From Amoebophrya sp. A120 (lineage: Eukaryota > Protista > Dinoflagellata): a DNA stretch of 64,000 bases. Made by a program: the position numbers and the translations under genes. Every line of letters starts with the position of its first letter. The stretch's first letter is position 1. The stretch covers positions 434,376 through 498,375 of the forward strand of contig CAJINV010000002.1 in NCBI GenBank assembly GCA_905178155.1. Reading direction: 5' to 3'. Below, one piece after another: positions 1-64,000 of this stretch. The notes below the pieces were generated by a model. The model was not told where the DNA came from, ran no database searches, and worked only from the letters and a program-made list of their open reading frames with translations.

Positions 1-3000
1 TATTCAACCTTCTGATTCTGTTTAGTTTCAGTGCGGTGAGGCACAGGCAGAACTTTGTGGTTACCACTCAAACCTCCTCCGTCAACTATCCGGGAGGAAT
101 CTGCGGCTATCGCCCCTTGCGCGATTTGTTTCCCCTTGGAAAGCTCGTCTGCTTCCTTTTTTTCCCTTTCCTCATTGTCGTTCTTGTTTCCCTTTCCAGC
201 AGAAGTAGTCGTACGAGCACAGTTTGACGAAGATGCATTTCTGTACACAACGGCCGTGTCTTCCCACTTCTCCGTTGTAATCATCCCCCGCTGGTTCTGG
301 TTGTAATTCGAATATGAATAATCGCCCGAGCATGTTGAAATAGGCTGCTTTTCTCGCCCAGAAGTTTTTCCTTGCGACGACGTAGTATTCTCAACAGAAG
401 AACGTTGCGCAGAAGAACGTGGACTGCGAGCAGCGGGCGCATAATTTGAGATACAATCCTCGACCTGCCGGCAATCATTATACGATCCTTTCTTGTTCTT
501 GTCAGGCCTTTCCGCTGCTCTTCCTCCTTTGTTATAGCCGTCACCAGATTTAGAATTGTTTTTCGAGGTTTTACTTTTCGACGCCCCCTCGCCACCTTTG
601 CTGAACCACACGGAATTTTTGTTGCGTGGATGATCTATTTTGTGGCTCTGATCATGTGTCGCGAGGACCGAAATGGAAGTAGGAATTATGTCCTTTTCAA
701 CAACCAATTCGTCCGTTTGTCGGCGATCTTCTTGATATTGTTCCTTTCCATGGCGGCTAGTGCCACTGCCGCCTTGTTCCTTTCCGCTAGTACTTTTAGA
801 CGAGGACATCTTCTTTGTGTTCGTGTTCAGGTGATCCGCGCCGCTTTTTTTGTCTTCAAGAATTTTTCCAGACGATGTTGAGGAACTGCAACTGGTGGTT
901 ACAACTTGAACATCAGGAATTGTTGCTGGTTCTTGTCCCGCACAACGACCTGCTGTTGGTGGGTCTTGATGTCCCGCACAACGACCTGCTGTTGGTGTAC
1001 TACTGTACTAAGTGGAATTTTGCAGGAAACGGGAAAATTGAAAAAAATTGCCCCCTGTGCTGGATGGGATGACGGCGACGGCGGCTGGGAGCGGGGACAA
1101 CGCGGCGGTCTTTCTTACAGTTTGTTCTCATCAAAAACCATCTACACTACAGGTACAAGGAAAGTCCTTCATCAAAGTACATTCCACAGGTCCAAATAAG
1201 TCCACAAATAAGGTACAAGCAGCTTACCTCGCACAGGGACCCGCGTTTCCGCTCCACACACACACACTACGATACAAATCATCACAGAAAGAAGTGCTCT
1301 CATCTGTTATTGTTCAAAAAATCCTCTGCACTACTCACAAATAAATCCAAATAGCACATATACTACTAGGCGGCTACCACTACCTCACCGGGCTTTACCA
1401 CGTCCCATGGCGCGGCAAGATCCCCCAGTCCTCAACTCACTGCAGGCACTTGACCGTGACCAAGATGTGTTGCGCCAGGTGGTGCAACAGAGCTACAGCC
1501 TGGCGACAGACCCATTTTGCTCGTGGCCATGGTCCAAGGCATGGCGGCGTTGGTCGGGCGTTCTAGCGGTGGGTAAGTTTAACAATGGTGAGCCTGGCGA
1601 TATTTGAGATGGTTTGAAAGTATGAGTAGAGCTGTATTCGTTGATGGATTTTCAATCTCTTGATGTTTGTGCTAGTGTAGTTCCTCCGTAGTGTGTGTGT
1701 GTGTGTGTGTGGGGACCCGGCCCGACCAAGAGCGGCGAAAGGTACCTGTTAAAAGTGAGTGCTTTTTAGTATTTTCAGACGTGAATGACGCCGCCTTGAC
1801 TCCAGAAAAGGCGGAAGAGAGTGGATGAAGAAGTGCAGGGCCTGGATGCTTCTGGAAGGTCTGCTCAAGGTCGGAGCTGCGGCGACATTACCTTACCTGT
1901 CGAGCGGCTGGAGGGGAGCAATTTTTTTCAAAATTCCTGTTTCCTGCAAAATTCCCGTTAGTACTGGGTCTTGTCCCGCACAACGACCTGCTGCTGGTGT
2001 ACTGGCATCAGCATTTTTTGTTTCATCACCCCCTCCAGTCCTCTGCTGAAGCCAGTCAGAAAACCGGGGCGACTGGTGGTTTTTGTCTTTACTATTACCG
2101 CCTTTGCCATTGCCTTTGCCACCCTTGGACGTCATCGTGTGGTCCTTGCTTATTTCCTTGTTGTTCGTCTCCTGCTCTACAAGTCCGTGGTGCTGGGACG
2201 ATGGGTGTCGTGTTTTACTGTAGTTGCCAGCTGCACTGGATGAGAAATTATTAGCTGCATATGAATTCTCCTGGTGTTGTTGCCACGAAGCTCCGGACGA
2301 CGCATGAGTGGCACCTGGACCTGATGATCCTTGATGTCCCTGGTAATAATCATTCCAGGCTTCACCTTCAGCTTCTTTTCCTTCTCCTCCTCCGGCACGC
2401 TTATTGTATCTGCCAGATTTTCTGCGCGCAGCAGCACCTGCACCAGTACCAGTAGCAGACCCATCGTGATAACAGCCACTGTAATAGTCGGTCGCAGCAG
2501 CACCAGTACGTGGAGCAGGCCTCTTGTTCATATTTTGACTCTCTTCATGCCACCAGCAGCTGTCTGGCAAGCGATTCAGTTGTGTGCCTGTGCCCTCTTT
2601 CATCGTCGTCGTACTAAAGCTGGCTTCGTTAGTACTAGCATTGTTTCTCCCCCCTGGGCCCCAGGTTCTCGTGCCGCATGCCGAGTCATAATGATCGAGG
2701 TATTTGTTGTAAGAACTGGCGCAAGAACTTCTACCAGGAGATGTATTCAATCCACCGTGGAGTTGTTGCTGTTGCTGTGTACTACACCTTCTTGGGGCTG
2801 CGGGAGGCGGTGGGGGTGGGAGCGGCCGAGTGTTGTTAGAACTCGCCATACAGCCTTGCTGTGATAGGAAATTGTGGGTAGCACTACTGCTGTTGATGTA
2901 CCAAGAATGTTGGTGGCCCGAGTTTTGTTGTTCAAAGTTGTTGTATATCGAATGCAAAAATGTCTGGGTCTGCAAGATTCTGAGACTTGTCATGCATTTT

Positions 3001-6000
3001 TTGCATGACCCATGATGTCTGTGATGTGATGCATGCCCTAGCATAACAGATTTTTTGAGGGCTTCTTGATGCCTATTCCGCATGACAAATGCCCTCTCCG
3101 CGTAGGAAAAATTACATTCCCATTGCTGCTCATCCAATACAGATATTTTTGGAATCCAAATGCAGCAGCACAAGTTGCATTCTTCCAGACCCAGACATTT
3201 TTTCATTTGATATTGTAGCCGGTTCCGAAGTCATACTCGCCGGCAGATATGGGAATGTCAGGATCGAAATCGACAAAATCGAAAAATTTGTGATGCATAA
3301 AATCGATACCAGTTGGAGCCCAGTTTGTAAGTGGTGCATGACAGATTTTGCCGCTACCTAAATCCAGTTTGTCATGCTGTTTAGGCAAAGAAGACTGCTC
3401 CTGTCGTGCTACTCTGGCAGCGCATTGCATACCCCTAGCCAGGCTTACAATCGGTCTCATTTGCCTGCCCGCCAATACAGGTCTTCAGTGCCCTACATTT
3501 TCTGCATCGCAAATTTTTCGATTTTGTCGATTTCGATCCTGACACATCCATAGCAGAAGGGTAAAAGTTGTAATTCATCTTGACTCGACGTCCAGCACCA
3601 ACAGATCCTGGTCCTGCACCCGCGACTCCCCCCGCATTATAGTTGCTGTCGGTCGTCGTGTAAAAACCTTCGTAATCTTTGTACAACCCAGCACTTGTAC
3701 CGCTACTGCAAGAACCACTTCCACCACCGCCGCTGCCGGCCTGGCTTGCTGTCACCACCACGGCTGTTCCATTATACATAGTTGCACTATCGCTGAAAAT
3801 AGCACTTGATAAATCGATAGATTTCTTCGGGTGCAAATTCTGCTCCCGGAGTTGTGAGAGGAAGGATTTGGTCTTGGACAAGAGCGCAGATGACTTCCCG
3901 TTTCTTTGCGTCTCCATAGAAGTACTACTGCAGCCGGCTTCATCAAAATCTTCGTCCTCGTCATCTGAAGATGGCACTCGGTTGTTGAAAATGTTATCCG
4001 CAGTTTTTTTCACGTCCAGCGCCGTGCTGTGCGCGCGACTGAGGGCGGGATGCAGGAGTTTACTTTCACGCGCCGGATGAACAACTTGTGGCCCGGATTT
4101 CGACTTTCGTTGCGAAGCACGTACGTCGCCCCGACGATCTTCGGCCCCTTTGTCCTCGACAGTAGTTACAGTTCTATCACGACCCTGGTGTGCTGCGACG
4201 TTGGAGTTGCTACTGCACTGGCTAGTAGTGTAGTCCACCTGCTGGTGCTTCGGTTTGCAGCTCACGTTGGCAGAAGTTGTACCAGCAGAAGGGTGCTCCT
4301 TCTGCTCGATGAGCTCCTGCTGCTGCTCGTCTTCACATGTTGTCAGCACCACTACACCTTGTGTAGTCCTCATACTGCGGCGAGCAGGATCAGAAATAGC
4401 ACACGGCATCAGCGGCCCACCGGAGCTAAAGCTTCCCTGATTGTCTTGTTGTTGCCAGCTGGTTTCAATTTTTGGCGCTTCAGCTGCTGAAAACACCAGA
4501 TCCGAGGCGACCTTTGCTCTAGTCGCCTTTTGTTCTTCTTGTTCTTCTTTTCCAGCTGTGCGGCCGTCGTTGTTCTTTGCAGTACTCTCGGTATCGTCCT
4601 CGCGGGAAGAACGGTTTGAAGGTAGAGCACGGAGGTCTTCTGTCTTGTTCCCCGCCGATAGGTCCTTATTTTTACACTCAACTTCTTCCGTCACGGCTAC
4701 TGTACTAGACCTTCCCTCCTCCGGTACAACTACGCTGATAATACTATTCGACGTAACTACCCGAGGTACAACGCTTGTTTGAGCTGCTTCCAGTGAGGAT
4801 ATTAACGGAAGAAACGGGGACTGCATCATTGATGTCCCTGCACCTCCTGTTCCTGCGTAAGAAAAGTAACCCTTTCCCGGGCTCGGGCTCGGGGTTTGTC
4901 CGATGGTGGGAAAACTCCTGTCACTTTTCAGCACCGCTGGGGTTGCGACGGGTGTGTACGCGGGATCAGACGCTCGTTGATGTGCAGGTGTCGTCGACAT
5001 GATAGACGCACCTCCGGGACTGCCATGCAGCGAAGCACTTAACATCAAGTTGCGACAACTCGGCGACGCGAGAACTTGTTGCTGATACAGCGGAAGCACC
5101 CCTGGTATAATAGCTGGTCCTTGCGAAGGCGTGGAGCAAGACGATCCCGGTCCTAAAATTGTTCCTGCTGGAAAGCAAGAACTCATAGAGCTACTATTCA
5201 AACCGTAGCCAGCGCCAATCTGTGACAGACAAAATTCTGCACTTGTAGATACGGAAATCCGTCCTGTACTGGCGAATTCTGCTAGAAGTTTTGAAGCGTG
5301 GGGATTTCGCGGAGTTGCCGTAGTCGGATGTTCTTGTTGGGCTGTGGTTATTTCATTCCGCTGCGGATCTTCATTTTGCGTAGTAGGAGATGTTACAGCT
5401 ATAGTGTTGTTCATCGCAATAGCATTACCCGTTGTGCTGGCTCGCTTGTCTAGTATTTCATCTTCAACAGCGCCGCTCTCCTGCTTTACAACCTCACACG
5501 GTTGCTCCTCCTCTACAGTTGCTGCTGGTTTCGCTACATCAGAAGCTTTTGGAAAGCACGAAGCGTCCGTTTCGGCTTGTTCCACCTGCTGTTGCTCATG
5601 GGCCACCAAGACATCATTGTTCAATACAGTGGCGTGGTCACATTGGTCCTGAGCGGCCTTCGTAGACGTGGTTTTCTCCGAGCTTGCATCGCTGCCTTTT
5701 GCAACGGTGCGCTGCAGATTTAAATCGTCCAATGGCTGTTCTTCCGCGACCTTATTCTGACCTTCTGGGGCGGGATGACCATGATCAGGGGCCGATGCAG
5801 TAATTGTTTCCTCTTCATCAAGAATCTCAGCATCATCCTTGTTCGACGCTTTCATCTTGTTCATTTCCGCTTCACCAGAGGATGAACCTTCCTTCGGTAG
5901 TTCTTGTCCCTGCTCTTCTTCCTCCTCAACGTAGTTCCCAGCGGCTTCGTCCAAAAGCCTCTTCTCTGCGCTGTAGTTCGCGCTCGGCATGACCATTTCG

Positions 6001-8582
6001 TCTAGCAAATTCCGAGGTCCTCGATAAAAAACAACCTCGCCGCTGATGTTTCTCGTATGCATTGTGGTGTAACAGCCGCGCTCAAAAGGCGAGCACATGG
6101 CGGACGACGGGGTGCCGTTGCCTACGGAGTGGGGGGAGTAGGCCGCCGCGTGCTGCTGGTTGTAGTAGTTTTGGTAAGAAGTATGGTCGTGTAGTTGCTG
6201 CTGATGCAGTTGTGCCATGGCAGTCGTGGGGGAAGCCGCCGCGAAATGATTCACCAGAGACAGGCCACTCGAAGACGACGTCGAAGACGTTTGCTGCATA
6301 TCCTCAAACGACCCTGATATCGCCATCGAGTTGTGGTTGTGCTCGTAGCTGTAGTTATTTGTGTTGCCAAAATTGTCATGCTGGAATGAAATGGCACTCA
6401 TTGCCGTTTCCAAATAACCTGCTTGATGTTCCCCGCGAGGCGTGCCGGTACTGGTCGCGAAAGTGAACGTCTTACTGATACAAGAACTGCCGGTGCTATG
6501 TAATACGCCGCCGTGGCTGTGGTCATCGTCAACATGGGCCGCAACTTTGTTACAACCGGCTGCGGAGCCAGAGCAAGCTGCTGTTGCCGCCGGCTCAGGC
6601 AGGTACACACCGCCCTGCGTTGTACTAGAAGAAGCTGTGTCGGCGGCGGCTGATGCATTTGTATCTCCTCCTACACGGCTAGTACAGCTTGCAGAACTAC
6701 CACTGTAGTCTTCGTGGCCTGCACTGTGAAGAAACTCGTATTGATGTTCCTCGTTGTAAAAATTTTCGCAGCTGTTGCTCTGGTGGTCACCATGATGATG
6801 ATACCAAGAGTTGTTGTATCCAGCACAAGAACTTCGGTCATGATTCCCACCATGACTATCAAATGCAAAAATGTCTGGGTCTGGAAGAATGCAAGTTTGT
6901 CATGCTTGTCTGGCATGACTCTTGAACCTGTCATGCACGTTACCCAAGAGCCCCACTTTGCTGTCATGCAGAAACGCAGTTTGTCATGCAGAATAGGCAA
7001 CACCTAGAAGCTCAAAAGCTTGTCATGCTGAGCCAGCACTTGTGGCCTCTTCATGATACGCCACCCAGCATCACAAGTTTCCAGACCCAGACATTTTTAC
7101 AATCCATAATGACCGAAGGTGTTGACCGATTGCGCTGATGATCCCGACGATGATTCAGGGTTGTTGTTGGCGTAAAAATGCTCCTGGTGTCCTCGGTGCT
7201 GGAAATCATTTGTCCTGCTCCGGTTAAATAAACCACTATAGCCGCGGCCACTGAGTAGTCTACCTGCTGCTGGTGCACCACCGCCCGAGTCTGTCACTGT
7301 CACACCTGCTGTGTCTGTGTCAACATTGTCGCGGTCGTCATTTCGTGCCGCGACCTGGTCACCATGCGCCGAATTATTCGAATTCTGTTCTTCCATGAAC
7401 GGACTCAAAGTGAATTCCCGATTCTCGTGCAAGTGATGCGGTGTACTGGGAAAAGTGGCGGAGAGGTCCAACACTCGCTGATAGTTATCGTCCTCCATAT
7501 CGTGACTGCTTTTGTCACCAGACGCAGGAAAGCTTCTAGACAGCATGTCGTGGCTGTCCTCGGCTTCTTGCTGGGCTGCTAGTGGTGCCTGGGAGATGGT
7601 ATATGTTTTTTGTAATTTTATTTTTTCCACCGGACCTGCCCGGGCCTGCTTTTTATTCAAGAATAACGAGTGATGATCATCGTCAATTTATTGCAATAAC
7701 AGCGGTTCCTAAATCGTGGGTCGCAGGAGACAAAGCTCTTTTCTGTTTCTAATCAACTCAGCATCGCAACGTCAAAATAACCTGATCGTAGCCCTGCTGT
7801 GAAAAATAGCTCGTCCTCTCCCCCTCCACTCTCGCCTGCGTATGCGCATGCCCCGCCGGCCGCCTATGAAGATCATACTCCTGAAATTCATACCCGCAAG
7901 AACCGCCACTGCTAGAAGTACTACTTCCCCATGGGAAATGATGATGATGAAGACTTCGGTGTTGTAGTTGCTCCGCCTGCTGTACTTGCCGCGCTTGCGG
8001 AACGAACTCGACCGCGTCGGAGTTCAATCTGTTCAAACTAGTACTAGGCTTCAACGTCGAATAAAATTCCTCACTACTTCCCGCCCCTACTACAACTTCT
8101 TCTCCGCGAGTATGTAGTTCTTGCGCCGGCTCTTCAGCAGGTGTATAATGTTCCTGCGACGGCAAGGTTACACTAATCTTCGTTCCCTCAGCATTATAGC
8201 CACCTGTCTGATGCGGACCACGATGTTGACCACGACCCGTGCTGCTGCGTGCTTCTTTACCAATAAAACCAGCAGAATTGATAGTAGAATCAGGCACGCC
8301 GTCAGCCTTGCTTCTATTCCCGCCTTCGGGAACTTCGCCGTCGCCAACCGTGGCCGACGTGCTGGCCTGCGCCTTATTCTTTCCTTTCTTCTTGCCCATT
8401 CTGGTGTCTACTTCACCGGTGCGTGGGGATCGCCTTGACGCACTATCTTCTAGTGAAGAAGAAGATGAAGTAGATGATTGCTTTTTCTCCTTTTCCGGAT
8501 AGCTCTGCTCGCCAACCGTGGCGGAACGGGGCAGTTTCGGAAGGTGTATGTTACGCGGCTTACTTCCGGGTCTGGTCCGCAT
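1..8582 (-). CDS. Very large (>2,100 aa) low-complexity/disordered protein, multi-exon, 3' end runs off window start
   Basis: ORFs 7758..8582, 7097..7660, 3435..6608 and 1893..3206 plus an open frame 1007->1 join in frame. Removed: GT-AG intron 7589-7781, introners 6857-7108, 3248-3552, 2946-3212 (each plus one TSD) and GT-AG intron 1008-1964. S/T/Q/E/G-rich, no recognisable domain; start codon uncertain. Confidence 0.75.
1006..1963. mobile_element. ~0.96-kb non-autonomous TIR element (MITE-like) forming an intron
   Basis: ~50-bp imperfect TIR gtactaagtggaattttgcaggaaacgggaaaattgaaaaaaattgcccc / ggggagcaatttttttcaaaattcctgtttcctgcaaaattcccgttagtac. Minus-strand GT...AG 1964-1008 restores the host frame. 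Confidence 0.75.
2946..3212. mobile_element. Introner family A (TIR core AAATGTCTGGGTCTGGAA)
   Basis: TAT...ATA ends, TSD TTGTA; removal gives ...GTGYN-NFEQQ in frame. Confidence 0.92.
3248..3552. mobile_element. Introner family C (TIR TATGGGAATGTCAGGATCGAAATCG)
   Basis: Long TIR, TSD GCAGA; removal gives YPSA-GEYD in frame; second copy at 22359. Confidence 0.9.
6857..7108. mobile_element. Introner family A
   Basis: TSD ATGAC; removal gives FGH-GGNHD in frame. Confidence 0.92.
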
Positions 8583-12170: not shown

Positions 12171-15100
12171 TGGCACAGTTTGCTCGCATATGAACTGCAA
12201 AAGTATCGTACTAGTAGTAATTGCAATACAAATTAGCTCAGCATGACAAATGGAATTTGTCATGCTGTTTTGCCTTGGGGTGGAGATTTGTAATGCATGA
12301 TTGCAATTACTACGAGTACGATACTTTTGCACAGGATATCGCAACAGTTTCTGCTTCAACTCCGTTTCCAAATTGTCGCAATTTTGGTTCTATGAACTGC
12401 AAAAGTATCGTACTAGTATAAATCGCATGACAAAAAATTTCCTCAGAATGGAAAATGGAGTTTGTCATGCTGATTTACCTTGGGAACCTCCAGATTTGTC
12501 ATGCATATCTGCGATTAGTACGGTTACGATGCTTTTGCATTTGATAGGTTCTCCAGTTTTTCTCTTTCCAATTTCTTTTCCCTTTCCAATTCGGAAATTC
12601 TCTCCCGTTCTTGTTTCTCCCGAGCTGTTTCCTCTTGCAGTTCCAACTGCTTTATGCATTGCAAATATGTCTGGGTCTGGAAACTTGTAATGCTGCGTTG
12701 GGAATTATAGTGAGTGCTCTGTAATGCGCAGCCAAGCATGAGAAATATCTGCGTTTCGTTGTGTTGCGTTTTTCGCATGACAAACTGCGTTTTCGCATGA
12801 CAGACAAAAGGGTCTCTTCTTGGACACGCATCACAAACTTTTTGGTCATCCCAGACAAGCATGACAAATCGCGCAATCTTCCAGACCCAGACATTTTTGC
12901 ATTTGATATGCTTTTTATACACTCGTGCCTTCTCCGCCTGAATTTGCAGCAACAACTTCTCCCGAATCCGGCCGAATTTCTGTTGCAGCAGTTGCAGCTC
13001 GGTGTTTGCATTCTCCTCTTCGACTTCCTCCTTTTCGTCCTGATCGATCGTTCGCGGGTCGCGGGTGAGCAGCTGTTTTTTTTTATTTTCATTTGCACAT
13101 TTGTGCCATGCATGACAAATTCAGTTTTTATTGCAAATTTCTGCATGACAGATCAACACATCTTCATCCTCGCTTCAATTTTTCTACCTTGTCCTTGAAA
13201 TTCCCCACTTCCTCTTCCAATTCAGCCTTATGAACTGCAAAAGTATCGTATTCGTATAAATGTAATTACAAATTTCTTCAGCATGAGATAATAAAATTTG
13301 TAATGCTGATTGACCTTAGGAGAAACATTTGTAATGCATGACTGCAATTACTACGAGTAGGATACTTTTGCACAGGATAAGCCTTCTCGGTTTCCATTTC
13401 CTTCAAAATCCCCTTGTATTCCTTGATCTTCTCACTCCTTCGCCTCTCCAACGTGAGCAATTTCTGTTCCTCCTTAAACAGTATGAAATGCAATAGAACT
13501 AACGTACTAGGTAGTACAAATCGCATTACACTGCTTGCATCTACAGCATTTCAAGTGTGTTTATTTATTCATCGTCTTATCTTCATCTTCATCGTCATCT
13601 TGTGGATCGTCGTATTGGAACAAAGGGAAAACCCGTCGGAGAGCGAAAAACCTCAGCGCATATCGCTGGAAAATGTTCGTTTCATATTTTTCAATTTTTC
13701 GTTTTTCACATGAGAATTTTGAGAGCATCTAGTAACGGTTCAAAAAACAGCACGGCGAGATTATGAAAGTCCAAAAATTGTTCTTGCTGTTGCACCCTAC
13801 CGCGACGTACTTTGAGCGGTGCTTCTCGACTCTATGTTCCTGCATCGATGAAGAGATTTTTGCTTTCAAAAATTGAAGAAGTTACGACATTGGGGTCGTC
13901 GGGTTTGAAGATGTTTGTAGTGTGTTTGCGAAAAGTTGCGAAGTGTGCGCCAAGTTGCCGATCTAGCATTACAAATTCGCAAGATCGTCTTCATCTTCAT
14001 CATCTTCATCTCTTCTTCTTCTTTTGATTTCAACGAAAATAAAATAACCATCTTGTCGACAACATCACTTGCATTGCAACATCAAACGTCACAAGCTTCT
14101 GCACGTTACCATCTGCGTGCGTAAAACTTCCAAGACCACTCGCAGATCAGATCAACATCAAACCACTACTCGCGTGTACAGCCGTGCTACGAACAACATC
14201 CGCGTCGGGAAAGTGCAAAAAGCTCCGGGGGTTGAATCGCTGCCCACACTTGCCGGGGAGGTTATATCGCTTGCATGAACATCGTGTTTTACAATCTCAA
14301 ACAAACCCCACTCAGGGCGGTGAGATCGGCAGGTGGTTGAGGTTTCTCCGGAAGCAGGCCCGGATATACCGCGCCCGATCCCCCTGGTTCGCAGGCCACT
14401 GCTGCCCGTTGTTGTCGTTCTGCACTGCTGCGTTTTTCCGGTCGTCGTGGATGCGGCCGAGGATGGTAGTCAGACGCGCCACAGTGAGGGTTTGGAGCTT
14501 CTCCACGATGCTGTCGTTCCCCGCCGCGGCGAAATGGGAGTCGTTTCGCGCCGCAGGAGACATAATCGAGAAAATCCATCCTTTCTGGTAGTCATCGTCC
14601 ACATTCCCGGCACCCCAGTGCACGTCAACGCCGTCAATCCGCTGCACGATGGGTGCGCCGTTGATACCTGCTTGGGGGGCAGGCTGTAGGTTTTGGTTTG
14701 CGGCGGGGGCTCCACCAGCACCACCTCCTGCTGCGCCACCTCCTGCGCCAACACCTCCTGCTCCAAAACCTCCTGCTCCACCACCTCCTGCTCCACCACC
14801 TGCGCCTCCGGCAACACCTGCACCTCCACCAGCCCCTCCACCAGCGAATCCCTGTTGTTGCTGAAACGGGCCTTGTTGCTGGAAAGGAGCTTGCTGCTGG
14901 AACGGGCCTTGTTGCTGGAACGGGGGCTGTTGCTGGAAGGGAAATTGTTGCTGAAACGGAGCGGCTTGTTGCTGGAACGGAACTTGTTGTTGGAAAGGAC
15001 CAGGTTGCGGGAACTGCTGCTGGAGAGGAAACTGCTGTTGCTGGTTGTACTGCGGGAAGGGTTGGTTTTGGTACTGGGCGGGGTACTGCGGAACGGGTTG

Positions 15101-18100
15101 ATTTTGGTATTGGGCATGGGGGTGCATCATGTTGTGATTGTGCATGTAGTTCGGCATCATGTGTTGATTCGGGTTCTGGTAGTACATCTGGGCGTTGGGG
15201 GGTCCAAACTGTGCCGGCATGTTTGCATAATTCGGGACACCCTGGCTGAACATCATCGTGTTGATCTGCTGCTGCTGGTTCTGTTGTTGCTGTTGCATCT
15301 GCTGCAACAGCCTTAGCACCTCGGAACTTTCTTCCTTCTCTTTGTTCGCAACAACATCGGGTTTGTTCAGACCATAGACTGACGCCAGACCGTCCGAAAT
15401 CGCCTTCCCCATGTACACCCCCTTCCGCTCTTCCGCTTCCCGCGCCTTCTTCTCCTGCTCCTTTTCTTTGGCTTCGCGGACCAACCGCTCAAGCTCAAGA
15501 ATGCGACACTCCTCACGCACGTGTTCGTCGCGTCCCTTGCCGGGCTTCAGGAGTTCGTGGTCTTTCGGTGCCATCTTGGATCTCAGTCGTGCGTCGTTGT
15601 TGTTTGCGTTGTTCTTTTTGTTACGATGTGGAAGAAGATAGTCTAGCTCATAAGTTGCCTCAAAGGTTTTTGGTGCTACTACGCATGCCTTGATCAATGC
15701 GATTAGGAGGTTGAAAACTCGAGACCGTTCAAACAAAACCTTGCGGCTGCATCGGATTATTGTCAAAATTGTCTGTAGTCGAAAGCCTCGCTGTTGCCAC
15801 TGTTTCAGATCGTGAAAGACATGGAGGGCCGTCAATACATCTGTGGAACTCATTCGCTTGGGATCTTCTGTGTCATCGGTGTTTTTCTTTTGGAGGAATT
15901 TGGCAGTGATTGCTTGCGCGATGTTGTTGAACCTGCTGAAGAAAACTGAGCGGTAGTACTCTACGTCGGTCATGTCCCGAAACCGCGCGCCTAGCGGCTT
16001 AAGGACTGGCCTCGTGCTTACTTCGACACGTGACCCGGGCCCCGTGCTCTCTATGTCTGTGGCAAGGTTTAGCCACCTCATTGACAGCGGTATTGCCTTG
16101 CTGCGGATCATTCTGTCGTCGCTCGTTGCTTGCTCCAGGATTCTGTCGACTTCTACTTCTACCCCGTCGTAGATGTCCTCGACAATTTCGGCGAGGCAGG
16201 GTCGGCAGAAGCAGGTCGTTAAGTTCGCGGAATCATCGACGAAACGCTCCATCGCTAACTCGCTCGGCTTTACTTTCCCGGTTCGGAAGGCGTGGTCCTC
16301 TGCTGCTGTCATCGCGACGGAGCAGGCAGCTTTGGACGGTATCCCGCCGATCGGTGTGCCCTTTTCCGGGTCCTGTCGCAGAACCAAGGCGCTGCCGAGT
16401 GTGCTGAATCTCAGCGCTGTGATGTTGAACAGTAAAAATTCCAAGTTCTCCGCTTCTTCGTGTTCGCACCTTGGTAGCGTCTTGATGTAATCAATTCTGT
16501 CGCGCATCAGCTGGACCCTGACACGCTCGAAAAAGACTACGGCATCGACTACCAGGCCCGTGGCGTCCGGTTTCTCTGTTCCACACCGCACGCACTTGCC
16601 TGTGCACTTTTTCAACTTTTGCGCCTTTGCCTGGAACGAACTTGCCGCCTCGGTCAGCGAGCAATTCTCTTTGCCTTTCGTCAGCACCTTCTTCAGCGTC
16701 TTCTCCACTTGCTGCACGCACTTGCGCTGCGTCGCCCGGTTTCGTCCTGTGATGGCCCGCACCTGGGAAACTATTTTGCGAAAAAGTTTCTCCTCCGGCA
16801 CATCTTTGAAAATGACGGCGCTGTCGTTCTGCACCACCAAGTTCTTGCCCTTCGGCAGGATGTACACGTAGGCCAGTTGCGTCATCTCCCCGAGTTTGTG
16901 TTCCTTCCGTCGCCCCTCGGCACTGTTCCACTGCTGGATCAAGCTGTTTACCGCTTTCAGCGCTTCCGCCTCTGTCATCGGCACGACTTCAAGATTTTTC
17001 TCGCGGAGGATAATCCGGCAACACATTTGCTGGTAGAGATACCTGTCGACGAAAAGACCCAACTCTTTCCACTTGTCCACCTGCACCAACACCCGCCCCG
17101 CTTGTAACTGTTTCTGTGCGTGCTCTTCTGCTTCTCGCAGCGGGTGCGCTTCTTGCTCTCGCCTGTACTGCTTCCGGCTCTGCTTTACTTGCACTCGCTT
17201 GTTGCATGCTCTCTGCAACAGCCGCGTTTGCGTTGCTACGTGCTTCACGGACTCCGGTCCGGGTGGTAGTGGGTCGGTCAGATCAAACGGGGCCGCTTCC
17301 ATTTTTACCTCCTTGAAGTTCACTGCTTGGCTTACGCTGGTGATCGCCTTGGCCGCGCCTACTGCTGTTCGCGTGTAGTAGCGCATCCGTGGGGCCATTA
17401 CCCTTCGCAGCGTGATCTTCTCGGCCAGGTATGTGCGGATTCGTGGGCGTGATTCCGCCAGGATTGCGCCCCGGACCTTTGCGAGCTCCTGTCGCTCCCA
17501 GCGGTACCGCCACACTGCTACAATGCAGGCGCGACTTGGTGCGCCCCTGCTGTTCAGCAGTATGTTGACTTTGCTGCGTGCGCGGAGCTTTTCCTTGCCC
17601 AGCACGATGCTGCCGCCCTCGACTATCTCCCGCAGGTCGTACTCTGGGAACTCGCTGCGTCGGTGGAGAAGGAAGAGGAGCCGCACCACCTTCGTGTACT
17701 TCATGCCCAAAAACTTTGCGAGCAAGAAGTAGTTCGGCTGTGCGTAGATGTTGAGCGGGCCCTCCGTTCGTCTCTCCGTTTGCGTTTTCGTGTACAGCTC
17801 GTGGTAGCTGCTTGCTGTGTCGTCTTTGCTCCGGAACTTCTGTTCGTAGTACTGGAGAAGCCAGGTTGTCGCCGGCCCTTCCAGTTCTACGCGTCTCTGC
17901 CACTGCGGGGGGCGCCGTCGTTGTCGTGTTTTTGCTTTTTGTTCTGTCGCCCGGCTTCCCGCGGTAAGCCTCTCTAGCCACTCCGACTCGTCGCGGCCTT
18001 CTTCTTCTGTCCCGCCTTCGCCTTTTTCGTAGATGCCCGTCTTGTTTAGTGGCGGCTGGAAGATTCTTACAAGGGCGGCCTCCGTCTTCCGCGCGTCCCT

Positions 18101-52677: not shown

Positions 52678-53801
52678 TTACGAAGCCAGCGTTTTCCACA
52701 GTGCCTGAAACACGAAGGAGAATTCCCTCTCACTGAACGTCGTAGTCCGAAAATCAAACTCCGTACCCGCAAGAATTTTCATGTTCGCCAACACCTTCTC
52801 CAATAATTCGTCTAGATCTTCCCGAATGTGCTTCTGCTCAACGTCGCCCCCGCCAAATCGCACCCCAAACCCTGTCACATCCAGTAACTGCATATGCCAG
52901 GAAAAAAATTAACCTTCCCTACCCAGTTTTTGCATGACAGACACAGAACTTGCTACATGTTTTGCATGACAAATCGGATGGGGATGGTTAATTTTCAGGG
53001 AATACTGCAGCAAAACTTCGACTCCGCACACATCCAGCAGAAAGGCCTTCACCTGGTTTTTCGTTATCCTCGGTTCGTAGCCCGCGTCGTTGGTCTCACA
53101 ATGGTGTTTCTCCATGTATCTTTTACAAACGTGCCGCTGCTCCGAATCGCTCCACTGATGCAGGAAGTGGGTCTCGAAGTGATAATCGTGGTTTTTGCCG
53201 GAACTATTATTATGGTGTGTAAGCTTCTGTACCACGGCGTGGTGATGTGGTGGAGGGAATGATGTAAGTCTCCTGTCAATTGTTGTGCCATGATCTTCGC
53301 CAATGCCGTCGAGAGCGAAAGCCCCTGTAGAAGTAGAAGAAGTCCTGCTTGACGATCTGTACCGCTCGCCATTTTGCATGGAGCGGATCGGCGTGAAGCT
53401 GTGATTCAACTTGCCGTGGGGTTTGTCAATGACGAACCGGTCAGTTTGCTTCATCTTTGTAGTCGTTGTAGCTGGAGAGGGCGGGGTCTTTCCGTTTCGA
53501 CGGCCTCTTTTCGACGCGCACGCGCTTATCTCCCGGGCCATGGGAAGCACGACCGGCGTGAACGAGTGAAGCGATATATCACACAGAAAAAAGCAGCCAG
53601 GTCAAATTTGTAATGCAAAAATAAATATGCAAAAAAATCTGTATTACATAACCGAAACAACATGCTATGTGGCCGCCCATGCCAGATTTTTCTGCGTATT
53701 TATTTTTGCATTACAAATCTGCCCTGCCTGCTTTTTTCTCCGGGATACGATACATCCGCCGTTGGGGACTTGGAACGGGGACGGGAGGTGGCGGAGGTCA
53801 T
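52678..53801 (-). CDS. Hypothetical protein; C-terminal half possibly degenerate EF-hand-like
   Basis: MTSATSRPRSKSPTADV-SLHSF...VEVLLQ-LLDVTGF...LWKTLAS* after removing two introners; ITKNQVKAFL and FSEREFSFVF resemble EF-hand exit helices (weak). Confidence 0.7.
52893..53004. mobile_element. Short introner (112 bp), singleton TIR
   Basis: TSD CTGCA; TAT...ATA; GCATGACA motifs. Confidence 0.87.
53577..53747. mobile_element. Introner, singleton with long TIR
   Basis: TSD CGATA; ~55-bp imperfect inverted repeat. Confidence 0.88.
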
Positions 53802-55942: not shown

Positions 55943-58900
55943 TCAGCCCCCAAACAGTTTATCCCACAACCGGGTGACCTTCGGCCACAGCCCGTCTTGC
56001 AAAAAAGTGTCGTTGTAAAAGCAGACCGCGAGCTGCCAAACGTATCAAATGTAAAGGTGTCTGGGTCTGGAAGACTGCGCGATTTGTCATGCAGCTTTTC
56101 CATGGCCCATGAGGTCTGGAATGCAAGCCCTAGCATGACAGATTCTGTGCGATCTTTCTCATGCCTATCCTGCATGAGAAACTGCCTCCCGACTTGGTCA
56201 AGAAAACTGGACGAATTTTGGTAATCATGCAACACAGATTTTTGCATGTTTCAGATTTAGCATGACAAGTTGCATGCTTCCAGACCCAGACACTTTTACA
56301 TTTGATAAAACGTACGCAAACGCCATTGCTGCGGAGATCAGGTGCAGCTCGCGGAGGAAAAAGATGAACAGCTGGAGAATTTTGACGAAGTGCAGCGCGA
56401 ACAGATATGCATCGCAAAAGTATCGTAAAAAAACTTGTACTAATTGCAGATATGCATGACAAATCTTCTTCCTAACGTAAAACAGCATTACAAATTGCAT
56501 ATAGATTTGATTGTCGTTGTGCTGAGCTTACTTTGTAATGCGTTTTATACTAGTACAATACTTGTGCAATGCATAACAGAATCCAAGTCACGACACTTGC
56601 TATGTGGTCGTTCACGATGGTCTCCGCGAGCTCTTCTGCGGAAGATGAGGAGGCTCCTGTTTGATTTAACATCCCTCCGTATCAAATGCAAAAATGTCTG
56701 GGTCTGGAAGATTGCGAGATTTGTCGTGCTTGTCTGGCATGACCAAAAAGTTTGTGATGCGTGTCCAAGAAGAGACCTTTTTGCCTGTCATGCAAAAACG
56801 CAGTTTGTCATGCGGAAAACGCAACACAAAGAAGCGCAGACATGTCTCATGCTTGACTGTGCATTACAGAGCATTCACTATTCCCAACGTAGCATTACAA
56901 GTTTCCAGACTCAGACATTTTTACATTTGATACTCCGCCCATGTCATCCGGGGACGAGGATGCCCCCGCCCCTCCCTGGTGATGATGGTGGTATCCTGTG
57001 CAAAAGTATCGCACTCGTATCGTACTAATTGCAAATATGCATGACAAATGTTATTCCTAAAGGCAAAACAGCATTACAAATTTCACTTTCCTCCTTGCCA
57101 AAATTTGTGAAGCAATTTATACTAAGTACGATGCTTTTGCAATGCATATGTGGTCTAGAGTCGCCGGAGAGATAATCGGAGAGTCGGGTATGTTGTGATG
57201 TAACTGACCAAGAACATTGGCGCCAGCGTTATAACTGTTCCCACTATTACTTCCACCTCCCATCGGCGGTGAGTCCACGCCTGAAAACGCTCCTGCTCCT
57301 CCTGAGGACCGGTCCTGATCCAAATTCAAATTCGATGGGGGGGAGTCACCGCCAGCAGAAAACTGCTGCTGCCCATGCTGGTTAAATACTTCGACGCTCC
57401 CTATCAAATGTAAGAATGTCTGGGTCTGGAAGAATGGAAGGTCTGTCATGTTCTGCCAGCATGACCCCAAAGTCTGTCATGCACGTTACCCAAGAGCCCC
57501 GTTTTTTTGTCATGCAGAAACGCAGTTTGTCATGCAGACTAGGCAACACCTCGAAGCTCAGAAACTTGTCATGCTGAGCCAGCACTTGTGGCCGCCTCAT
57601 GATACGCCAACCAGCATCACAAGTTTCCAGACCCAGACATTTTTACAGTTGATACTTCCGTCCCCCCCGCTAGGTCGGGTGCTGCCCGTGATGGTGGGCG
57701 AGCTTCCGTTGATGGGGCTTATCGTGAGAAAAAAGAAGTGTATACAGCTTACACTCTGTGTTGCAGATCAAACCAGAGAGCCTTGCTCTGTCATGCCGAA
57801 GATGGTGCACTGGAGCCCAGTTTCGTCCATGTTTTTTCCCTTATAGCATCTCTGCATTGCAAGTTCTGTGTGTCATGCCGAGCAAGAATATTGTGATGCT
57901 GGAGTTACTACAACAAATATGTAAGATGAGATCCTAGCACTGTTCTTGTATGTAAACTGTATAACACTTTTTCATCTGGGATAGTGCTGCCGTGACAAGT
58001 AGTACCATTGTGGTGACGCGACAGTGAGGAAGAAGTCATCTCGACGTTGTTTCTGCTACCAGAAGAACCACTACCGCTGGTACTATTGTTTGCGCTGTTA
58101 TTTCCTGGCGAAACGGTGTCAAACATCGTTTTGAAGAATTGCAACAGCCCCGGCCAGACGTAGTCGGGTAGGATCCAGGTGGAGAGGAAGCTGTCAAACG
58201 CAATTATGCACTGCAAAAGTATCGTACTCGTATTGCAATCATGCATTACAAATCTTTTTGTTAAGTCAAATCCGCATTACAAATTCCATTTTTCATGCTG
58301 ACGGAATTTGTCATGCGATACTAGTACGATGCTTTTGCATTTCATAGCAATCATGGGGAAGCAAATGTTGATATACGCTTCGGGAGACAACGCCATTAAG
58401 ACGAGACTCGTATCAAGTGCGAATATGTTCTGGGTCTGGAAACTTGTATTGCTAAATGGTCATGATTGGGTGAGCCTTTCAGTGCAGTGACGCATGACAA
58501 AATTTTCGAACGCTCTCTCATGCACAGCACACATTACAAACTGCGACTCTGCATCACGAAAGTGCGACGCTTTATTCGCTGCTCAACATGCAAGACAGAC
58601 TTCTCAGGAATGTGAGACACGCAATACAGGTTCAACCTTTCCAGACCCAGACGCATTTGCACTTGATAAATCGCGGCGCGACGCAAAATTCCGTAGGCGT
58701 GGGTTGATGTGATGTCGTGGTGCCACTTCTGCCAGGAAATGGGCTTCGTGGGGGTTGAGGATGGAGAAGTGAGAGAACAAAACGCTCGCAACAAGGGAGA
58801 GCAAATAATTTTGGCCCGCAGTGCGAGCGCAAGCGACCAGGTTTCGGTCGGACTAGTTTCGGGGTCGTTTGGTCGTGTAGTTGTTTCTGTGTAGTGTTCT

Positions 58901-60504
58901 TGGGGGTTTGATGATGTAGTCGATGAGGACGTAGTTCCCGGATGTCCTCCGCTCATGTTGTTTTCGCCACGTTGGCTGTGGTGCTGTTCAAAATCATGAT
59001 TATCTCCTTCTCCGATAGTACCGCTGCTACGACCGTTTATTTTACTCACAGCTCTACTATTGCTATTCTCCGAGCTTCCACCGCCGATGTTACTCATTTT
59101 TCTACTTCCGCCAAAACATCTCAACAGAGACATGACACAACCGCAGCAGAATCGCCAAACTTCCCAGAAGTCCGTGCTCCGGAGGGCCCGCTCCGCCAGG
59201 CTGTGCGCTTTGCTGATAAAGTGCAGGAGGAAGCCGACGAAGACAAATCCTTTCATCGGCACGGTGAGGTTGTGCTCCTCGTAGATTGTTTCCGCTGGCT
59301 GGAAGTTGTAGGAGGAGGGGTATGGTACCATTTCGTTGCTGTTAGTCATGTCCATCATGTGCTGTTCTTCCGTCCCGAGTTCTGCCACTGCTGTTGTGTA
59401 TTTGGTGGTGACCAACACTCTATGAATTGCAAAAGTATCGTACTCGTGTAAATGCATTACAAATTTCCTCAGCATGAGAAATAAAATTTGTAATGCGGAT
59501 TTACCTTAGCAAAAGGATTTGTAATGCATGATTGCAATACGAATACGATACTTTTGCACAGGATACACTCCCTTGTACCACAACCCATCGACATCGTACA
59601 GGTCCCACAGACAACTCATATGGATTGCAAAAGTATCGTACTCGTAGCATCAGATGCATTTATGCATTACAAATCTCTTTCTCAATTACTGGAGACGTAT
59701 ATTCTCACTTTTACGGTCCAAGAAACTTTTTCTCAAGGTAAATCAGCATTACAAATTTAATTTGTAATGCTGGGCTAATTTGTAATGCAATTTGTACGAG
59801 TACGATGCTTTTGCAATTGATAGCTCAGCCATATCGTTGATTTGACCGAAGAGATCATGAGGATCACCAAGGGGAGACCGTGCATCACCACGTTTTCCAG
59901 GTTTCCCACGGCCTCCTGCAAAAACTCGCCGAGTCTGCCCCAGTCCCTCAGCACAAAGCAGCTTGTGAAGAACACCAGACAATATCCACAGTAAATTTCT
60001 CGTACACCTACGCCCGCGTACTGTTTCATCTGCATGACAAAACTTTTCTTCGTTCCTACTTAGCATGACATTTGGCGGGAGGGGGACGCTCTACTAAGTT
60101 AGCGTGCGCATCGTGTACGGGAAAAAATTTGTGTTGCGTAGACAGGTAAAGCAGATCGGCTGGAAGAGTTGCTGCTGGAAGTAGCTGTTGAGCGACTCAG
60201 CATCGGGGGGCACCATGTAGCTGTATTCGTAAAAAAAGTCCTCCGGCGGTGTGAAAAATGTTGCCGAGGAAGCAACTCCGGCGGTGTGAAGATTGTGAAA
60301 CGGGGGGTTCTTGTAGTGGTTGTGCACCTGCTTGGAGGAACCGATCCCAGTGTAGTCGTACATGGAGTTGTCAAGAGAAGCTGCGTCATTCGCATCTTGT
60401 TGTAAACTCGCGACGACTTCTGCGATTGGGTTATTCAATGCTCCATGGGCGGCGGCCTGGTGCAACATCTCCTGTAGCTGGTCGTGGACCACAGATGACG
60501 GCAT
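55943..60504 (-). CDS. Putative multi-pass membrane protein of unknown function
   Basis: Several hydrophobic segments (YCGYCLVFFTSCFVL, LPLVILMISSV, GFVFVGFLLHF, ILQLFIFFL, AMAFAYVWQLAVCF); ends ...LWDKLFGG*; 10 introners; not every junction checked. Confidence 0.68.
56043..56307. mobile_element. Introner family A
   Basis: TSD AAACG. Confidence 0.92.
56406..56575. mobile_element. Introner family B
   Basis: TSD ACAGA. Confidence 0.9.
56680..56932. mobile_element. Introner family A (reverse orientation of 12653-12908)
   Basis: TSD CTCCG. Confidence 0.92.
56992..57148. mobile_element. Introner family B
   Basis: TSD GGTGG/TGTGG. Confidence 0.88.
57402..57654. mobile_element. Introner family A
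   Basis: TSD CTCCC/CTTCC. Confidence 0.9.
57720..57983. mobile_element. Introner, singleton TIR, aged
   Basis: TAT...ATA, TSD GGGCT/GTGCT; joins HGS-PING. Confidence 0.8.
58205..58346. mobile_element. Introner family B
   Basis: TSD GCAAT. Confidence 0.92.
58411..58668. mobile_element. Introner family A (diverged)
   Basis: TSD ACTCG/AATCG. Confidence 0.87.
59421..59565. mobile_element. Introner family B
   Basis: TSD CACTC. Confidence 0.93.
59619..59822. mobile_element. Introner family B with ~50-bp internal insertion
   Basis: TSD ACTCA/GCTCA; internal TTTCTCAA duplication. Confidence 0.88.
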
Positions 60505-61771: not shown

Positions 61772-63688
61772 TCATTCCTCATAGCGGTACATTCCGCCCG
61801 TGAGATAATAAAGTCCACTGTCGTAATCTTCGACCGCTTCAGATGAAATATCTTCTCCTTGGTTGAATTGTTTTTCGGCGAAGCTACGATCGTCGCCTGT
61901 AGTTGTTCTCGTAGTTGCACCGCTCGTCCTTGTTTTTACCGGCGAATGCACAACATTTTGACTTCCTGTCATGGTGGTCCTCGTCTGCGCCACAGGCTGC
62001 ACGACAGGTGTTGTCATCAGCTCCCGCACGATGAACGACATCGCCCCACCGGAAAACTCGTCCCGTAACAGCACTTTTGCTGCGGCTGCATGGATATCAC
62101 ATGCAAATATATCTGGGTCTGGAACTTTGCTAGACTTGTCATGAAGGTTTTCCATGGCCCATATGATCTGTAATGGAGGACCTAGCATGACAGATTCTGC
62201 GCGATCTCTCTCATCCCTATCCTGCATGAGAAACTCCCTCCCGACTTGGTCAAAACTGGACGACTTTTGGTAATCATACAACACAGATTTTTGCATGCTT
62301 CAGATTTAGCATGACAGGTTGCATTCTTCCAGATCCAGACATTTTTACATTTGATAATGGAAACTTTCCCCCGCGTAGCGGTTCAGGTTGCGCTCGCAGT
62401 GGCTGTCCGGCTGGTAGCAGAGCGCCTTTTTCACGCTCTGGAGACCGGCTTGGAGATCAAATGGAAAAAAGGTGTTTACATTTTCATTTACGCTGCACTG
62501 ATTTTTCGTTCGTCAATTTGAATTCAGCAAGACAAATTCCTCTACATGAGAGAGTTGCGAGAAAACTTGTAATGCAGAAATCCTGTTACGGGAAAACACG
62601 TACTAAAACCAGGCTCCTAGGCATATCCGGCATGGAACGGCTTACGTGACTTGTTTGGCCTGCAACACAATGTGTAAAAAAATGTATAAACACATTTTTC
62701 TTGCGATACTGCAGCTTTCGCATTTTCGTGGAGTCAGGGAGAATTTCGGTTTGGAGGTACTGGACCAGGTCGAAGGGGGATGCGTTTCTGTTTTGCGACG
62801 ATCCTTGGTTTTGGAGATTGAGCTCCTCATTCAGAAATCGTTTTTCCGGAATGCGGATTAGAATTTCGTCGTCCCAATCCCACGACGTCCAGGAAGTGGC
62901 GGCCGGCGAAGATGATGCTGATGCTGTCATCGGTATTTTATTTTCAGATGGGGGACGACCTTCATGGTCATCTTTATCCTCGAGGTGTTGAGCCACGTGC
63001 GGAACAAAATCGGGAGCCGTCCTAACGGTATTCGAGCTCCTGCCAAATCTGCTGTTGAACGGCAGCCCAAGCTTATGGAGAGAAAAAAGTTCGCGTTCGC
63101 CACAGTCACGACTAATTTGGAGGCTTTGCGTCACGATTATACAAATTTTTTAGCATCACAGCTTTTTCTTGTATTGCAGAAAAACTAAGGGAAATCCCGT
63201 ATGAAGTTTGGCTGTGATGCATTTTTACGCATGACAGGCATTTTTTGTATTGCAGAAATGTTGCCCATGAGTGATCGTGACGAACTTTTTTCTTTTGATA
63301 AAGCTCGTCGTCAATTAAGACTGGGATGCAGTCGGATGAGACCAAAACGGAGAACAACCTGCGCGTGCTTCTCGCGTATCAATTGCAAAAATGTCTGCGT
63401 CTGGAGGAATGCAGGTCTGTCGCGCTTGTCTACTCACATGAGAGTGGAATCTGTAATGAGTGAGCAGGGAAAGCCCTCTTGCCTGTCATGCGAAAGTGCA
63501 GTTTAATATGTTTACCATGCGGAAAGCGAAAGACAAAGGAACCCAGAAACTTGTTATGCGTGGCTGCGTATTCTTGGGGTAAGTCCACAAGCCACAAACT
63601 AGCATCACAAGTTTCCAGACCCAGATCGATATAATTTGCAATGCATATCGCATCGCCGGGAACGATTGCACAGAAGACGGATTTCTGG
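61772..63688 (-). CDS. Exostosin family (GT47) glycosyltransferase, 3' part (5' end outside window)
   Basis: Spliced translation QKSVFCAIVPGDARSTRRLFSVLVSSDCIPVLIDDELGLPF...WDDEILIRIPE matches the exostosin motif S.FC..P.GD....RLF.....CIPV......LPF. Confidence 0.85.
62095..62356. mobile_element. Introner family A
   Basis: TSD ATGGA. Confidence 0.92.
62455..62708. mobile_element. Decayed introner-derived intron
   Basis: GATCAAATG...GCGATA ends, flanks TTGGA/CTGCA; removal plus 5 nt joins RKLQ-AGLQ in frame. Confidence 0.7.
63074..63300. mobile_element. Introner, singleton TIR
   Basis: TSD AAGCT; joins DDEL-GLPF. Confidence 0.88.
63377..63647. mobile_element. Introner family A (diverged)
   Basis: TSD TCGCG/TCGCA; joins PGDA-RSTRR. 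Confidence 0.88.
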
Positions 63689-64000
63689 CATCGAAAGGAA
63701 AAATGCCCCCTCCCCATATCAAAACGGAATTTCTGATGCTGGATTTGTGTACACAGATCAGCTTTGTACTGCAGGAAGGCATTGCGGCCAGATCCCCAGG
63801 CTAGGTAGGGGCGCATGGGTCTAGTTGTTCAGCATTGCAAACGGCTCCCCTTTAGGCCCAACAGCGTGACAAATCGCTTCCATAATGGGACGGAAGCTTC
63901 TGCCCTTCTCTTCTTGCGAGACAAATGTGATTTGTGACCTCAAATCAGCAACACAAATTTTCGGAAACATACCTTTCAATATGGGGAGGGGGAGTTTTTC
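63689..64000. mobile_element. Introner truncated by window end
   Basis: Inverted repeat GAAAAATGCCCCCTCCCCATAT / ATATGGGGAGGGGGAGTTTTTC. Confidence 0.7.

Follow-up and report, generated by a model that had tools for sequence, protein, structure and literature searches.

The stretch analysed here, hereafter the window, comprises 64,000 nucleotides of the dinoflagellate Amoebophrya sp. A120 (contig CAJINV010000002.1, positions 434,376 to 498,375, forward strand) and carries 56 introners, short elements that end in terminal inverted repeats (TIRs) and sit next to a short target-site duplication (TSD). The elements match the published introners of A120 and are themselves already known. The text of Farhat et al. 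(2021, PMC7789003) describes inverted repeats that start with TAT and continue with seven looser bases and at least three A, direct repeats of 3-5 nt and a length of ~240 nt; the window elements fit this account in ends, 3-5-nt repeats, length, number of families, co-oriented gene blocks and non-canonical splicing. Our subject is a short motif inside these elements, which recurs at regular spacing across families with dissimilar interiors.

Screening for TAT…ATA inverted ends flanked by a 5-bp repeat returned 72 candidates against 0-2 in five shuffles, and the resolved candidates together with degenerate copies added by eye make up the 56 window elements. TAT begins 107 of 110 window element ends, partly by construction of the detector, and A occupies end positions 11, 12 and 13 in 94, 97 and 103 of the 110; balanced by family, the frequency of A at TIR positions 11-14 is 0.67-0.90. 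A first-pass annotation of this DNA had described the TIRs as unrelated. Instead, all families share TAT-N7-AAA-like ends and a 5-bp TSD, and the family-specific part of the TIR is confined to positions ~14-30. An exact 5-bp TSD flanks 215 of 295 elements, with other lengths rare (3 bp, n=5; 4 bp, n=1; 8 bp, n=1; 6 bp, n=0). The shared TAT ends and 5-bp TSD point to one integration chemistry. Paralogous empty sites within the window display the duplication directly: filled and empty sites pair up in a repeated coiled-coil gene family (12189/24090, 12653/24238, 24276/22695/12925 and 22776/13003), showing introner gain after gene duplication. The elements at 12391 and 25802 occupy the same site with the same TSD, yet the two family-0 copies differ appreciably, which suggests either a second insertion or conversion. 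Three near-identical segments of ~600 bp lie upstream of the repeated coiled-coil genes (11400-12000, 23330-23990 and 25030-25620).

In-silico removal of an element with one 5-bp repeat restores long minus-strand open reading frames (ORFs) of 1651, 628, 707, 544, 651, 286 and 340 aa, spanning 3, 7, 2, 10, 10, 2 and 4 elements, respectively. RNA-type contigs from four runs of one sample, whose RNA status is presumed though they do skip introns, show 12 joints in 44800-48940, present in all four runs and corresponding to eight elements and four GT-AG introns. All eight elements are skipped together with exactly one TSD copy, and none has GT-AG (CT..AC) ends; a thirteenth joint, in two runs, lies within one element and likely reflects another copy. 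Over 48938-50686 the RNA-type contigs match element removal exactly (1749 - 1291 = 458 nt), and removal is likewise implied for 52887-53003 and 56038-58668; in all, contig sizes or one skipped stretch imply it for 14 elements beyond the eight. In the 2026 raw RNA run X9, 66 partial reads fell on element copies, too few to be informative.

The window contains 139 strict motif copies (66 GCAT[GTC]ACAA and 73 TTGT[CAG]ATGC), whereas 40 dinucleotide shuffles gave a mean of 2.5 and a maximum of 7. Element DNA (12,931 bp, including a split element, a relic and an element truncated at the edge of the window) holds 132 of these copies (10.2/kb), and the other 51,069 bp hold seven (0.14/kb; expected 1.3, shuffle maximum 4). 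The earlier impression, gained by eye, that the motif is rare outside introners was therefore accurate, as was that of several copies per element in either orientation: at least one strict copy occurs in 54 of the 56 elements and at least one 8-mer GCATnACA in all of them, and both orientations meet within one element in 33 (strict) or 45 (broad) of the 56. Among the copies cited at the time, those at 6897, 6981, 7020 and 13110 are strict, those at 6928 and 6961 read CTGTCATGC and that at 13143 reads GCATGACAG. The wider consensus is GCA(T/A)(G/T/C)A(C/G)A(A/G)(A/G)TT, with GCATGAGAA, GCATGACAG and GCAATACAA as frequent variants. The motif is a genuine feature of the window.

To reach further copies, metagenomes were scanned for two motif copies 31-32 bp apart, a pattern that matched at least 136 stretches. 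Assembly JACKZZ01 supplied 95 of the 135 loci taken from the scan and carries the same element families; its loci contain 242 elements (4 in a shuffled control), 229 of them with a strict motif copy. The 78 elements containing the search pattern (seeds) were excluded from the spacing and conservation tests. Window and JACKZZ01 elements together (n=297) form 24 clusters, 13 of which have at least three members. The elements at 48943, 52893 and 53577, formerly taken for singletons, do carry the motif but are not singletons, because they cluster into families of 23, 9 and 3 once the outside loci are added. With the motif and outer 14 bp masked, BLAST found no link between families at E<1e-5 except one family-0 variant, and the motif is present in 13 of 13 families with flanks that differ between them. 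Interiors that do not align, combined with a common motif and a common spacing rule, support the initial proposal of a cis-site for one common trans-acting factor, and the converse case of all families aligning as one element was not seen. Among the matches listed, 40 loci lie outside JACKZZ01; the 39 examined (one human-gut-labelled record omitted) are tandem repeats or chance, and one of these, L041, yielded a marginal TAT..ATA candidate. Two end patterns gave no matches in viral contigs.

The spacing is regular and sharper than the 20-35 bp first claimed. Pairs of like-oriented copies separated by 31-33 bp are present in 12 of 13 families. With seeds dropped and one member drawn per family, such a pair was found in 8.6 of 23 families against 1.45 under the null (maximum 6, 2000 draws), and for the window only in 7.1 of 13 against 0.88. 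Regardless of orientation, gaps between neighbours peak mainly at 31-34 bp, with lesser peaks at 15-18 and 46-50 bp, and 70% of the gap weight falls on 13 of 44 values in windows picked post hoc. The proposed check for periodicity was positive, with a best period of ~16.5-17 bp (resultant 0.53 versus 0.31 null, P ~0.0007 allowing for the period scan). A 10.5-bp period was set aside as weaker than ~16 bp (0.06 versus 0.41 for all pairs, 0.32 versus 0.36 for same-direction pairs); 32 bp would amount to three helical turns. Spacers between paired copies differ from family to family, and the centre of the first site is, in most families, 36-38 or 43-57 bp away from the element end.

Short GT-AG introns were also said to carry the motif, which is true of a minority: it occurs in one of four RNA-confirmed introns and is absent from three, and occurs in 10 of 31 predicted introns and is absent from 21. 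The latter counts are rough, since the predictor placed both ends correctly for one of the four RNA-confirmed introns; the 31 are what remains of 41 predictions after 10 were dropped as element-like, and they contain 14 broad motif sites in 5,165 bp. As a general rule, the claim that the motif marks a sequence for excision does not hold, given three RNA-confirmed introns that lack it and its decay in degenerate copies. It could still serve the excision of non-canonical introns, given that no RNA-supported TIR element lacks a copy. GT-AG introns that bear the motif without terminal repeats may be domesticated introners whose core has outlasted the ends; in the intron at 13073 the core resembles family 6 and the flanks do not (spacer 0.62 versus 0.49±0.05 shuffled). 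At L061:2950-3075, a search seed and thus biased, an element has intact inverted ends, a perfect 32-bp motif pair and a duplication mismatched at four of five bases; the upstream duplication copy can be read as a GT donor, and the element may be an intermediate on the way to a canonical intron. The interval 59984-60141 was rejected as a canonical intron, being a TIR element.

Two properties of the motif bear on its function. It is balanced between transcript strands, with 359 sense and 377 antisense sites in the 203 of 297 elements that received a strand call (no locus had mixed calls); sense-only (n=25) and antisense-only (n=23) elements both sit inside reading frames, and the one-directional families occur there in both polarities (6:4 in family 3, 3:3 in family 6). 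It is also conserved where elements are intact. In a sample of 95 intact-TSD copies from families 0-7, divergence from near relatives was 4.0% at motif bases and 10.8% at the remaining interior bases, a ~2.7-fold difference. Among 27 full-length copies whose ends were degenerate, the corresponding values were 11.6% and 14.5%, and a separate comparison pointed the same way. The more a TSD is mismatched, the lower is the density of sites (1.38, 1.20 and 0.92 per 100 bp); TSD mismatch proved too weak a clock for dating copies. The motif is thus conserved in spreading lineages and decays in copies whose ends have decayed, the pattern that a mobility signal would give. On balance, we regard the 9-12-bp word GCA(T/A)(G/T/C)A(C/G)A(A/G), repeated at spacings near 16, 32 and 48 bp, as probably, though by no means securely, a putative double-stranded DNA binding site for one mobilising protein, either a transposase or a helper. 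Such a protein would bind the spaced sites cooperatively, with several protomers loaded on the array, and the common TAT-N7-AAA end would be the cut site that yields 5-bp duplications. The family-specific inverted repeat (~14-30) would matter as self-complementary structure rather than as sequence, allowing clean excision of the RNA. Lineages retaining the array would go on spreading, and copies that no longer move would let it decay.

Action in RNA, whether through small nuclear RNA (snRNA) or guide-RNA pairing, a single-stranded-RNA protein or a self-pairing stem, would suit elements that are spliced without GT-AG ends, 45 of 56 of which contain both orientations, so that motif copies could pair with one another. 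We nevertheless find it very improbable. A guide RNA or single-stranded-RNA-binding protein is disfavoured by the even distribution over the strands and by single-orientation elements of either polarity, so that of the three factors suggested in the first-pass annotation (transposase subterminal site, intron-definition protein, guide RNA) the DNA-level, transposase-subterminal type is the one favoured. Of the inverted pairs, 19 of 63 close ones and 24 of 83 outer ones agree in core variant (G-U wobble not scored), which speaks for independent double-stranded DNA sites that are preserved separately, and against stems; families 3 and 6, mostly or wholly one-directional, offer no motif-motif stem. 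An Rfam search of the window returned no matches. Alternatively, the motif might be a non-functional relic of one ancestral element, spread and kept uniform through common descent, duplication within elements and ectopic gene conversion. Common ends and TSDs do suggest common ancestry, and both the family-6-like spacer of the 13073 intron and the decay of the motif in degenerate copies agree with it, but this too appears unlikely: neither spacers nor flanks are related between families, yet the motif and its 31-33-bp spacing persist, gene conversion would homogenise the flanks as well, and a relic does not account for the excess conservation of motif bases over their neighbours in intact copies.

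More credible, if doubtful, is a host DNA- or chromatin-binding protein that reads the array and flags the element for excision during transcription, or for excision and mobility, with the host selecting at least 1-2 copies per non-canonical intron. A DNA-level site of this kind would be strand-neutral, as observed; all 56 window elements retain at least one 8-mer, including the degenerate but removed 62455-62708; and the broad sites and spaced pairs in GT-AG introns fit as well. The text of PMC7789003 adds that U1 snRNA was undetected in A120 and proposes a novel protein subunit. Against a host factor stand the many GT-AG introns without the motif, the decay of motif bases in end-degenerate copies at least as fast as the rest, the drop in site density with TSD mismatch and an apparently in-frame element in L037 without an intact site. 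A binding site for a mobilising protein has its own difficulties. Neither the window nor 48 longer outside loci contained an autonomous element or transposase, and in the text of Farhat et al. putative transposases are reported in A25 only, not A120 (PMC7789003). TIR positions 4-13 match the motif at a mean of 4.3 of 9 bases (from 2.1-3.1 in four families to 6.0-6.7 in families 0 and 10), and the sites spread across the whole interior rather than being confined near the ends. Sampling in the decay test is sparse, with copies selected for degenerate ends, and 3-5-fold redundancy of the motif could hide host selection. A few predicted GT-AG introns without a terminal repeat keep spaced motif copies, namely 13073-13187 (33 bp), ~26851-26968 (~35), L019 (32), L025 (32 + 16; a seed) and L043:700 (16, inverted). 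Their end-repeat z ranges from -0.3 to 2.5, versus 6-19 for elements, and mobility alone does not explain spaced pairs in them. Both functions could reside in one protein, which would bind the spaced, strand-neutral sites on the DNA, mobilise any sequence carrying them between short self-complementary ends and, substituting for the missing U1, tag the nascent transcript for excision; such a DNA-encoded intron-definition code strikes us as unlikely but, if true, would account for the motif in every family and for the pairs in GT-AG introns that no longer have terminal repeats.

Short internal repeats bound by a transposase have precedents. According to the portions of PMC1636448 available, transposase binds subterminal repeats of miniature inverted-repeat transposable elements (MITEs) cooperatively and in either orientation (Emigrant/Lemi1), with Sleeping Beauty IR/DR, hAT and CACTA named as further subterminal-repeat systems. 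In those non-autonomous elements the number and layout of the repeats determine cooperative protein binding, and the introners resemble them in having several short internal repeats in either orientation and conserved arrangement. However, each MITE family as described there has its own repeats, which duplicate part of its TIR, whereas one word here extends across at least 13 families with different TIR bodies, is only partly TIR-like and occurs along the full length of the element on a ~16-bp lattice; the elements are also spliced. TA..TA termini recall the DDE transposons IS3EU/GingerRoot (occasionally TG..CA), but the elements were not assigned to that group because its TSD is, in the passages seen of PMC10045372, usually 6 bp (4-5 bp in Ginger2), against 5 bp in 215 of 295 elements and 6 bp in none here. 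One A120 introner family (family 38) is described in part of PMC12130899 as having TIRs and a Copia/Gypsy-like, integrase-like putative transposase ORF. Euglenid nonconventional introns are likewise non-GT-AG, with terminal pairing and TSD-like repeats, and are probably MITE-derived (excerpts of PMC12501133 and PMC11282704). In contrast to their splicing code, given there as a short paired CAG/CTG motif at the very ends, the A120 motif lies at least ~30 bp inside (centre at least 36 bp in most families) and is not kept as a pair.

The text of PMC7789003 presents the families as unrelated and speaks against a transposase as their general mobiliser. Together with the text of its supplement, it mentions no shared internal motif or spacing rule and contains none of three 9-mers, figures S19 and S25 being outside the search. 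Nor were motif and spacing found in print elsewhere, including the text searched of PMC11282704, bioRxiv 2020.10.14.339549 and PMC12501133 (figures, subscription papers and bioRxiv supplements outside the search). One of the 9-mers occurs in 759 papers, of which the 20 listed by title concern unrelated subjects. What is new is a family-independent, spaced, strand-neutral site inside known introners; the elements and MITE-type subterminal repeats were known before. Amoebophrya has tens of thousands of non-canonical introns, whose movement and splicing the genome paper, in the text seen, states as open (no A120 transposase, no U1; PMC7789003). One short word and a spacing rule across families argue for one machine handling all of them, and the motif is usable as protein bait. 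It also provides a simple signature for annotating these introns and spotting GT-AG introns derived from introners. If the site also drives excision, it would constitute a DNA-level splicing code.

Table 1. Introners and motif-related introns of the window, in window coordinates. "Excised" refers to joints in RNA-type contigs; "RNA-implied", removal implied by RNA-type contigs; "ORF", ORF restored by removal.
Feature	Position	Strand	Observations
Family 1 introner (A-type, TCTGGGTCTGGAA ends)	2946..3212		TSD TTGTA; 4 motif 8-mers; removal restores 1651-aa minus-strand ORF
Family 4 introner	3248..3552		3 motif copies; end search, clustering, ORF
Family 1 introner	6857..7108		minus copies 6897, 6928, 6961, 6981, 7020; plus copy 7068; gaps 31, 33, 20, 39; ORF
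Family 0 introner (B-type, AGTATCGTACT ends)	12189..12338		end search, clustering
Family 0 introner	12391..12546		end search, clustering
Family 1 introner	12653..12908		empty paralogous site near 24238
Predicted GT-AG intron without TIR	13073..13187	-	same-direction copies 13110, 13143 (33 bp); inverted-repeat z -0.3
Family 0 introner	13229..13379		end search, clustering
Family 0 introner, split by 5.4-kb GIY-YIG retroelement-like insert landed in motif copy	13482..19105		
Family 0 introner	19164..19317		1-mismatch TSD
Family 0 introner	19418..19567		end search
Family 0 introner	19782..19929		end search
Family 4 introner	22359..22665		one end TGT; copies 22503/22535, 32 bp apart
Family 1 introner	22776..23045		degenerate TSD; empty paralogous site near 13003
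Family 0 introner	24276..24420		empty paralogous sites near 12925 and 22695
Family 0 introner	24469..24622		degenerate end (CAT) and TSD
Family 0 introner	25802..25950		end search
Family 1 introner	26064..26329		end search
Probable GT-AG intron without terminal repeat, approximate ends	26851..26968	-	GCAAGACAA + GCATTACAA ~35 bp apart; predicted
Family 0 introner	27724..27872		restored 628-aa ORF
Family 7 introner	27948..28183		alternating-direction copies 46-49 bp apart; ORF
Family 0 introner	28244..28394		ORF
Family 1 introner	28484..28763		1-mismatch TSD; ORF
Family 1 introner	28801..29062		ORF
Family 0 introner	29450..29594		ORF
Family 3 introner	29646..29956		copies all one direction; ORF
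Degenerate introner, unclustered	34618..34911		1 strict copy; restored 707-aa ORF
Family 1 introner	35281..35533		ORF
Introner, long family-0 variant	38375..38702		end search, clustering
GT-AG intron, RNA-confirmed	45082..45208	-	1 strict + 1 variant copy; terminal repeat at most weak (z 1.8)
Family 0 introner	45295..45466		excised with one TSD copy, joint 45289/45467
Family 5 introner	45538..45760		excised with one TSD copy, joint 45532/45761
GT-AG intron, RNA-confirmed, without motif (control)	45881..46054	-	
GT-AG intron, RNA-confirmed, without motif (control)	46185..46386	-	
Family 3 introner	46506..46784		excised with one TSD copy
Family 2 introner	46873..47087		excised (220 nt)
Family 1 introner	47131..47386		excised with one TSD copy
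GT-AG intron, RNA-confirmed, without motif (control)	47441..47585	-	
Family 1 introner	47676..47933		excised
Family 1 introner	48024..48276		excised
Family 0 introner	48338..48499		excised
Family 2 introner, no singleton	48943..49151		RNA-implied
Family 1 introner	49288..49557		RNA-implied
Family 1 introner	49737..49988		6 motif 8-mers; RNA-implied
Family 3 introner	50037..50315		one direction only; RNA-implied
Family 12 introner	50431..50686		RNA-implied
Family 6 introner (112 bp)	52893..53004		same-direction copy pair (32 bp); RNA-type contig skips 117 nt
Family 9 introner	53577..53747		clustering
Family 1 introner	56043..56307		restored 651-aa ORF; RNA-implied
Family 0 introner	56406..56575		RNA-implied
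Family 1 introner	56680..56932		RNA-implied
Family 0 introner	56992..57148		RNA-implied
Family 1 introner	57402..57654		RNA-implied
Family 2 introner	57720..57983		RNA-implied
Family 0 introner	58205..58346		RNA-implied
Family 1 introner	58411..58668		RNA-implied
Family 0 introner	59421..59565		resolved ends
Family 0 introner	59619..59822		resolved ends
Family-10-like introner (family by eye)	59984..60141		one decayed end (GTA); TSD GACAA/GACAG; copies 60032/60063, 31 bp
Family 1 introner	62095..62356		no strict copy, two GCATGACAG
Degenerate introner	62455..62708		GAT end, decayed TSD, 1 strict copy; RNA-implied
Family 11 introner	63074..63300		no strict copy, three 8-mers
Family 1 introner	63377..63647		resolved ends
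Family-8-like element, cut by window end	63690..64000		degenerate motif copies

The 5.4-kb insert (13530-18990) within the split family-0 element has long direct terminal repeats and entered a motif copy, duplicating 7 bp. Its 1475-aa ORF (14315-18739, minus strand) matches a GIY-YIG domain (Pfam E 1.4e-5) and gave leads under 0.9 to GIY-YIG/RVT clusters in the Atlas; viral contigs contained no relatives. From these matches the insert is probably Penelope-like. Further nested inserts in introners lie at L018:433-1641, L042:1614-2251, L043:4583-5397 and L034:2733-3180; with the window case, three of five sit in or right at a motif copy, a sample too small for a test of targeting. Three candidates longer than 700 bp were considered as long autonomous elements, and the two that were opened proved to be short elements with nested inserts. 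The interval 32361-34911 was judged a chance candidate for such an element, because excising 34618-34911 already restores the ORF.

Elsewhere in the window, a 728-aa intron-free ORF (41126-43309, minus strand) had no Pfam match and no usable Atlas match. Comparison of 39100-39660 with 62400-62900, and of 38270-38340 with 39680-39740, revealed a partial duplicate of gene pieces that holds a motif-free relic element at 39360-39618; the duplicate at 39100-39660 is probably a pseudogene fragment. Two ORFs in GC-rich intergenic blocks had no Pfam match. These blocks (60-69% GC; 20400-21900, 30800-31950, 51500-52330 and 54200-55330) contain no elements and possibly represent another repeat class.

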